This document shows, one piece after another, positions 63,759 through 64,000 of a stretch of 64,000 nucleotides of DNA. The stretch lies in assembly GCF_030013595.1 (NCBI RefSeq), contig NZ_CP122768.1; one strand, given 5' to 3'. Source of the DNA: Escherichia coli (GTDB lineage Bacteria; Pseudomonadota; Gammaproteobacteria; Enterobacterales; Enterobacteriaceae). The notes below the pieces were generated by a model. That model saw only the letters and a program-made list of their open reading frames with translations, did no database searches and was not told where the DNA came from. Made by a program: the position numbers and the translations under genes. How positions within the stretch are numbered: the stretch's first letter is position 1; the number at the start of each line of letters is the position of its first letter.

Positions 63759-63794
63759 TATTTCGCCGACAGTTTCCCGGTTGTCGGCGAAATG
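63759..63794 (+). terminator. Strong hairpin 15 nt after the operon's last stop
   Basis: Perfect 10-bp inverted repeat ttcgccgaca/tgtcggcgaa with a 10-nt loop, extendable by 2-3 bp; no immediate U-run, so a terminator role is tentative. Confidence 0.4.
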
Positions 63795-64000
63795 CTGATT
63801 GTAATTTTTCGGCAAAGGGCATGGACGATTTCTTTTCGTTATTCTGCATATTGCTTACCTTCCCAAATTTCTCCAACCGTTAGTTGGAGAAATTAGATGG
63901 GTCGTAAATCATGAATAAACGCCTTGATCTATTCGAAAAATGAGAATTGCAACTTTCAACGCCCCCTCTTCTGAGTCCATTATCTCAGAGGACGCTTTCC

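Follow-up and report, generated by a model that had tools for sequence, protein, structure and literature searches.

GInts are genomic islands with a common plan, in which the ginABCD operon lies at the 5' end, the cargo genes follow directly after ginD, and the 3' end is AT-rich (PMC5385486). They insert site-specifically and have imperfect repeats at their flanks, and in Pseudomonas all four gin genes are essential (PMC5385486). Transcription of the Pseudomonas gin operon is reported to run on into the cargo, and a helix-loop-helix is predicted in GinD (PMC5385486). In E. coli these islands carry anti-phage defence systems (PMC10121019), and an island of E. coli Sakai is found in the part of PMC10214605 that lists GInts. 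We have found no description of hairpins following ginD in the GInt literature that was searched.

Bidirectional intrinsic terminators comprise one near-palindromic stem-loop in the spacer of a convergent gene pair, flanked in the order AAA-stem-TTT. REP and BIME elements are palindromes of ~30-35 nt, imperfect to perfect, that lie in 3' intergenic DNA, are deletion-prone and are targets for insertion sequences. In E. coli, a stem-loop that has no U-tract is commonly the mark of a processed 3' end on a Rho-terminated transcript.

We have analysed a stretch of E. coli DNA of 64,000 nucleotides (contig NZ_CP122768.1), termed the window, in which two perfect hairpins, HP1 and HP2, follow the last gene of a recombinase operon close to the right-hand edge. 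Taken alone the hairpins matter little, and the useful result is the correct anatomy of the spacer in which they were flagged. Here the recombination operon of a GInt-type defence island meets, in convergent orientation, the island's first accessory genes. The spacer is neither an end of the island nor a leader, and its surroundings are those of an already described class of mobile island.

The island that contains the hairpins

The recombinase operon is the ginABCD-like module of a genomic island of the GInt type, which lies between hipA and a LysR gene. Over its last 5.1 kb the window has 100% identity with E. coli HCP5S3_I2 (L001), so that the sequence past position 64000 can be read. In most E. 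coli genomes homology to the region ends 105 nt after hipA, and at an empty site (L002) hipA is directly followed by the LysR gene. Alignment of L001 with L002 reveals an insertion of 11,488 bp at L001:5049-16536, with junctions at 59347/59348 of the window on the left and at L001:16536/16537 on the right. The right end lies ~6.8 kb past the window, and the hairpins are therefore internal to the island, 4.4 kb inside its left end.

Short imperfect direct repeats enclose the insertion, ATGTTAAATA at the left end and AAGTTAAATG at the right. The attR counterpart is AAGTTAAAT(G/A) at L001:16528-16536, outside the window, and the att core is the 7-bp sequence GTTAAAT. A K. pneumoniae plasmid, conjugative and of the IncF type (L044/L048, NZ_CP113201.1), carries a copy of the island with 99.8% identity. 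Since this insertion has identical ends, in a similar target sequence, it confirms the ends of the island independently. The features of the island that lie within the window are:

59338-59347, plus strand: attL-side imperfect direct repeat ATGTTAAATA, placed by the empty site L002 and the K. pneumoniae plasmid insertion (L044/L048)
59348-64000, plus strand: left 4.65 kb of the 11.49-kb GInt-type island, the rest extending beyond the window
59462-60947, plus strand: remnant of two tyrosine integrase genes, ginA-like and ginB-like, joined by a deletion of 1,472 bp
60944-63310, plus strand: ginC-like gene, 788 aa, no Pfam domain; BLASTP against ECs_3510 gives E = 1e-9
63310-63744, plus strand: ginD-like gene, 144 aa, last in the recombinase operon, stop codon at 63742-63744

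The inner right end of the island (GGTTTATG..ACTGGATTCTCGCT) resembles the chromosomal flank to the left of the insertion (L001:4995-5008, 16518-16531), so that the attP-like region mimics attB past the 7-bp core.

The island has the organization of a GInt. As in the described elements (PMC5385486, PMC10121019), there is a four-gene operon at one end encoding two integrases, a large non-catalytic protein and a small protein; the cargo lies right behind the fourth gene; insertion is site-specific with short imperfect direct repeats; and the cargo is of the anti-phage defence type seen in E. coli. An empty site exists, and the chromosomal and plasmid targets are similar. Intact copies (L003 and L044) carry co-oriented genes of 463-466, 516-517, 788 and 144 aa, the first two of which encode site-specific integrases. 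We compared the proteins with those of the Sakai island. The GinA-like (2e-18), GinB-like (3e-6) and GinC-like (1e-9) proteins match ECs_3512, 3511 and 3510 in collinear order, and a profile comparison of the GinD-like protein with ECs_3509 revealed no similarity. A sequence search of the PDB with the 788-aa protein gave no meaningful match. Homologues of the 144-aa GinD-like protein occur in Pectobacterium, Dickeya, Klebsiella, Aeromonas and Acinetobacter, and this resembles the host range of GInts given in PMC10214605. In the portion of the GInt and SE lists of that source that was searched, no accessions of the window's island family were found.

The island differs from the described GInts in two respects. 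Its GinD-like protein is unlike that of the one listed GInt compared, and the copy in the window is without 1.47 kb of ginA-ginB. By comparison with the copy on NZ_CP113201.1 the deletion runs from within the first integrase gene into the second, removing the 3' part of the one and the 5' part of the other. Because this DNA is lost, and all four gin genes are essential in Pseudomonas, the window's copy is probably immobile.

Past the window the cargo includes genes for an HTH protein, an AAA-ATPase and an ABC-three-component system. Identical hairpins, together with the ABC-three-component and AAA-ATPase cargo, are found on NZ_CP113201.1 and on 13 other K. pneumoniae plasmids of the conjugative IncF type. 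This suggests plasmid-borne spread of an island that has been described as non-mobilisable. To the left of the island, the hipA toxin gene (58432-59242) has lost ~510 bp internally and out of frame when compared with L001 and other E. coli. The deletion junction is at ~58871/58872, leaving ORF fragments of 204 and 125 aa, and hipB is apparently intact.

Anatomy of the convergent spacer

The first-pass annotation had proposed extending the sequence past position 64000. Doing so through L001 reveals a gene on the minus strand with its stop at 63909 and its start beyond the window. A gap of 164 bp (63745-63908) separates this stop from that of the ginD-like gene and, since the next gene lies on the minus strand, the flagged gap is a convergent spacer. 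Its features and those of its right-hand border are:

63743-63750, plus strand: first copy of an 8-nt direct repeat AATGCTGA, with the second copy at 63791-63798
63760-63793, no strand assigned: HP1, 12-bp stem with a 10-nt loop, -18.2 kcal/mol as plus-strand RNA
63794-63865, no strand assigned: inter-hairpin spacer of 72 nt, with no Rfam match and no promoter-like site
63866-63894, no strand assigned: HP2, 12-bp stem with a 5-nt loop, -14.9 kcal/mol as minus-strand RNA
63897-63943, plus strand: tiny ORFs MGRKS* and MNKRLDLFEK*, overlapping the stop and 3' end of the minus-strand gene
63909-64000, minus strand: 3' part of the gene for a 64-aa protein with an Xre/MbcA/ParS C-terminal domain (full gene, window 63909-64103)

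Both hairpins had been correctly placed after the last operon gene, and each is slightly longer than was first described. HP1, noted as a repeat of 10 bp (63762-63771 with 63782-63791), is by sequence reading and a repeat finder a perfect inverted repeat of 63760-63771 with 63782-63793, with all 12 positions complementary (arms ATTTCGCCGACA and TGTCGGCGAAAT). By the same means HP2, noted as 11 bp (63867-63877 with 63883-63893), pairs 63866-63877 with 63883-63894, again 12 out of 12 (arms AATTTCTCCAAC and GTTGGAGAAATT). The two lie almost symmetrically with respect to the convergent genes. HP1 begins 15 nt past the stop of the ginD-like gene on the plus strand, and HP2, read on the minus strand, begins 14 nt past the stop of the 64-aa gene.

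The cores of both stems are G+C-rich, and the calculated RNA stabilities of the stems lie between -14 and -18 kcal/mol. The A/T-rich flanks have the order 5'-TTT-stem-AAA-3' on both hairpins, so that on neither strand is there a U-run 3' of the stem. The tails that follow the stems are GCTGATTG, ATTCCTAT, AGATGGGT and TGGGAAGG, and the nearest T-run is at 63805-63809, 11 nt after HP1.

A count of perfect hairpins (stem of 12 bp or more, loop of 3-12 nt) gave three for the 64-kb window, whereas 60 dinucleotide-preserving shuffles contained none. HP1 and HP2 make up two of the three, and both fall within 135 bp. Other perfect hairpins of the window lie at 29896-29923 (12-bp stem) and at 57962-57992 (11-bp stem). 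The latter is just past the stop of an ECSE_1600-family autotransporter gene, and may be the 3' structure of that gene. RNA folding, proposed earlier as a check, gives the 181-nt spacer a more stable structure than its shuffles on both strands (z = -4.0 on the plus strand and -4.1 on the minus strand). Folded alone, the HP2 segment is strong (z = -4.8 and -5.5) and the HP1 segment is unexceptional (z = -1.6 and -1.1). The hairpins are thus real and statistically non-random, yet of an ordinary kind. A scan of 58000-64000 against Rfam, with E up to 1, gave no match.

The domain of the 64-aa protein is assigned by a Pfam score of 32.0 bits against a cut-off of 24.5. Its gene is at the end of a minus-strand pair, overlapping by 17 nt the gene for a 110-aa HTH protein, and the pair occupies L001:9610-10120 (window 63909 onward). 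No RES-type toxin gene lies downstream, and the two genes may represent an antitoxin-like regulator that is orphaned or split. In the commonest type of E. coli island the 64-aa ORF is truncated. Within the gene there is a third, imperfect hairpin CCCTCTTCTGAG...CTCAGAGG at 63967-63992, kept in all the sister copies of the island, even those without HP2. In the latter it may be the 3' structure of the HTH transcript.

Further into the cargo, repeated operator-like palindromes ATGCTTAGA/TCTAAGTAT are present at L001:10144-10195. This is the promoter region from which the HTH gene and a conserved gene for a hypothetical protein of 186 aa diverge. Neither these palindromes nor the inverted repeats at the ends of the island have any relation to HP1 or HP2.

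Variation of the hairpins in sister islands

The sequences of the hairpins are confined to a GInt context, with one copy per island. They are found at one to three places per genome, all within GInt copies, and the window has no further copy. The HP1 region is present in 162 of 5,426 E. coli genomes, in only two of them with an identity of at least 99%, and the HP2 region in 52 of the 5,426. The whole spacer is found on 45 plasmids, every time at a GInt copy, and it gave no phage matches. We aligned 12 E. coli chromosomal and plasmid copies, followed by four more plasmid or Enterobacter copies and sampled species.

A perfect 12-bp HP1 is limited to the lineage of the window, comprising 2 of the 162 E. 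coli genomes together with related K. pneumoniae plasmids and E. whittamii. HP1 is cleanly missing from L006 and L007, the closest relatives, as the result of a 48-bp deletion; the 48 bp between matching positions of the two AATGCTGA repeats hold HP1. In the commonest E. coli type (L003, L004, L009-L013 and L045-L047), 20-30 nt stand in place of HP2 and of the 3' end of the 64-aa gene, and homology is regained after a further 157 bp in the L003 type. The L008 type retains both hairpins, and its cargo switches ~6 nt past HP2. Four islands (L014, L020, L022 and L024) have neither hairpin, with the two stop codons only ~30 nt apart.

Both hairpins are therefore dispensable to the island: most sister copies have lost one or the other by deletion, and more distant GInts have neither. 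Across 22 lineages a strong hairpin following ginD occurs only in the Escherichia/Enterobacter clade, and no comparable hairpin follows ginD in the GInts of Pectobacterium, Acinetobacter, Citrobacter and E. coli Sakai.

Where the hairpins are retained the stems vary. Among 11 distinct variants of HP1 the stem is imperfect in 10, and no compensatory change was found. At five of the 12 positions of the stem the pairing is lost in some variants, and within the 7-bp core three lineages carry mismatches that are uncompensated. Comparing the islands of E. coli with those of Enterobacter asburiae, the arms of HP1 are retained while only 4 of the 10 loop bases agree. HP2 has undergone one compensatory change, from C-G to A-T in the L008 lineage; this is a single event, with a score equalled in 45 of 500 shuffles. 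The retention of the HP1 arms and the compensatory change in HP2 point to some constraint on pairing, as judged from these alignments, and selection on the hairpins is weak.

The equivalent spacer in E. asburiae contains other strong hairpins, unrelated in sequence. In L016 (Enterobacter asburiae) there is a perfect hairpin of ~18 bp (AACCTATCTTCAGAGAAC...GTTCTCTGAAGATAGGTT, ~4560-4610), downstream of the HP1 homologue and unlike HP2.

At least six apparently independent breakpoints in the sister copies fall within ~20 bp of HP1 or just after HP2 (~63743-63812 and ~63900). In the types L003, L004 and L016 homology breaks at ~63802-63806. L005 has an IS1 junction at ~63812, and in L053 the end of an IS3 abuts HP1 at ~63758. 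Such clustering of breakpoints at a perfect palindrome provides a small natural example of palindrome-associated instability.

The hairpins as putative 3'-end structures

The symmetric placement of HP1 and HP2 past the stops of convergent genes, the stability of their stems and the missing U-tracts lead us to propose that they are putative 3'-UTR stem-loops that act as barriers to exonucleases at the ends of two convergent units. We give this reading an even chance of being correct. HP1 would be the 3'-untranslated stem-loop of the ginABCD-like recombinase operon on the plus strand, and HP2 that of the pair encoding the HTH and 64-aa Xre-ParS-C-like proteins on the minus strand. Termination would come first, either Rho-dependent or of a collision type. 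The stems would then block 3'-to-5' exonucleases, so that the mature 3' ends are both defined and protected, and antisense read-through would be limited, insulating the two units from each other. If the hairpins define RNA 3' ends in this way, expression of the recombinase operon would be insulated from the convergent regulator, and this would bear on the control of excision in these poorly understood islands.

The locus shares with the U-tract-less 3'-end stem-loops of E. coli mRNAs a stable and dispensable intergenic hairpin lying a few nucleotides past a stop codon. The likeness is one of anatomy, and the comparison is with such structures in general rather than with a curated family. Also in favour of this reading are the excess of perfect 12-bp stems over shuffles, the folding of the spacer on both strands, the HP1 arms kept in E. 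asburiae, the compensatory pair in HP2, the other strong hairpins of the E. asburiae spacer and the restriction of the sequences to GInts, one copy per island. Against it count the lack of a U-tract in any orientation, with a negative terminator scan and negative scores, the absence of covariation and the mostly imperfect variants of HP1, the single covariation event in HP2, the repeated loss of the hairpins and their absence from distant GInts, and the reported continuation of transcription from the gin operon of a Pseudomonas GInt into the cargo (PMC5385486).

Alternative explanations

It is possible that the hairpins have no function, being imperfect repeats in a dispensable spacer that became perfect by chance, for example through a template-switch mutation of a quasi-palindrome. 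We think this unlikely on balance, while allowing it a substantial chance. It would be consistent with the restriction of the perfect HP1 to one lineage, the ten other variants being imperfect and uncompensated, and with the repeated loss of both hairpins from islands that are otherwise kept, as well as their absence from distant GInts. The same explanation would require that two of the three perfect hairpins of at least 12 bp in the window arose by chance within 135 bp, each 14-15 nt past a stop codon. It also fails to account for the arms of HP1 being kept across genera despite divergence of the loop, or for the compensatory pair change in HP2.

Alternatively the palindromes could act at the level of DNA. 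They would be bound or recombined by a Gin protein, the HTH regulator or a host factor, and would mark the place at which the recombinase module meets the exchangeable cargo. This we regard as improbable. Independent breakpoints do cluster around HP1 (the 48-bp deletion at 63743-63798, the breaks at ~63802-63806, IS1 and IS3) and after HP2 (L008). Moreover, the compensatory change in HP2 preserves its dyad symmetry, and a helix-loop-helix is predicted in GinD (PMC5385486). Against this, both hairpins are missing from many GInts of this family in which the four-gene operon is intact, and the arms are unlike the island ends, the att core or the operator-like palindromes of the HTH promoter. The clustering is explained equally well if this is the only dispensable non-coding DNA beside an essential operon, and palindromes between short direct repeats are deletion-prone. 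Furthermore the break in the L003 type is a deletion and not a cargo boundary, because homology resumes beyond it. The fragility of palindromes is well known. A stronger proposal would make the hairpins DNA hot spots at the boundary of module and cargo, recognized by Gin proteins or extruded as cruciforms, and thereby driving cargo swaps, deletions and IS insertions; we would be surprised if this were so.

The first-pass annotation had raised the possibility that HP1 and HP2 are terminators, and canonical Rho-independent ones, acting in one or both directions, are a further alternative. In position this stands, as each hairpin is 14-15 nt past the stop of one of the convergent units, and a stable stem-loop with a G+C-rich core just downstream of a gene is what an intrinsic terminator requires. 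The claim to be a canonical terminator does not, since no U-rich tract adjoins either stem and classical intrinsic termination is consequently unlikely. A consensus scan for promoters and terminators flagged neither 12-bp stem, detecting only a weak alternative stem at 63783-63799. A score of the d'Aubenton-Carafa type lay between -21 and -41, whichever of the eight combinations of strand and stem definition was used. The convergent gene pair with near-palindromic stem-loops in the spacer is shared with bidirectional intrinsic terminators. These have one shared hairpin, whereas there are two separate ones here, and the TTT-stem-AAA flanks of HP1 and HP2 are the reverse of theirs. Overall we consider intrinsic termination by these stems very unlikely.

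Next to no credence attaches to the proposals that the hairpins are terminal repeats of the element, or that they form a leader or attenuator with the tiny ORFs that controls a downstream gene. The ORFs exist as had been claimed (MGRKS* at 63897-63914 and MNKRLDLFEK* at 63911-63943), with a GGAGA motif 5 nt upstream of an ATG. But they are antisense to the 3' end of the 64-aa gene, the region after HP2 being the end of a minus-strand gene with an above-threshold Pfam match, and the next plus-strand gene is ~400 nt further on, beyond two minus-strand genes. This removes the leader reading. In addition the GGAGA is sequestered in the 12-bp stem of HP2, and in L008 the sequence just past the first ATG (…AGATGATTGAATC…) differs from that of the window. 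From this arrangement we judge the tiny ORFs to be fortuitous.

Nor is there support for the hairpins as a recombination core or end site, as had also been suggested. The ends of the island are mapped by two independent insertions, on the left at 59348 and on the right well beyond the window. A search for the arms near 59243-59488, allowing up to two mismatches, gave only matches at chance level, and the same was true of the right end, the whole island and the window. Most related islands with intact recombinase operons have neither HP1 nor HP2. The absence of the hairpins from other copies and the lack of any leader function for the downstream gene had been named beforehand as findings that would refute the proposals, and for these two both findings were made.

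Comparison with other families of palindromic sequence gave no assignment. REP and BIME elements resemble HP1 and HP2 in size, 3' intergenic location, proneness to deletion and association with insertion sequences. They differ in being dispersed, with many copies per genome, whereas HP1 and HP2 are single-copy, found only in this island family and without a match in Rfam or to any other family. An origin of transfer or a phage origin was rejected, as there are no plasmid matches outside GInt copies and none to phage. A dispersed repeat or MITE was also rejected: the sequences are single-copy and always in a GInt context, and the 48-bp indel that includes HP1 has no terminal inverted repeats. 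Since distant copies keep HP1 and the closest ones lack it, this indel is better explained as a deletion between the 8-nt direct repeats.
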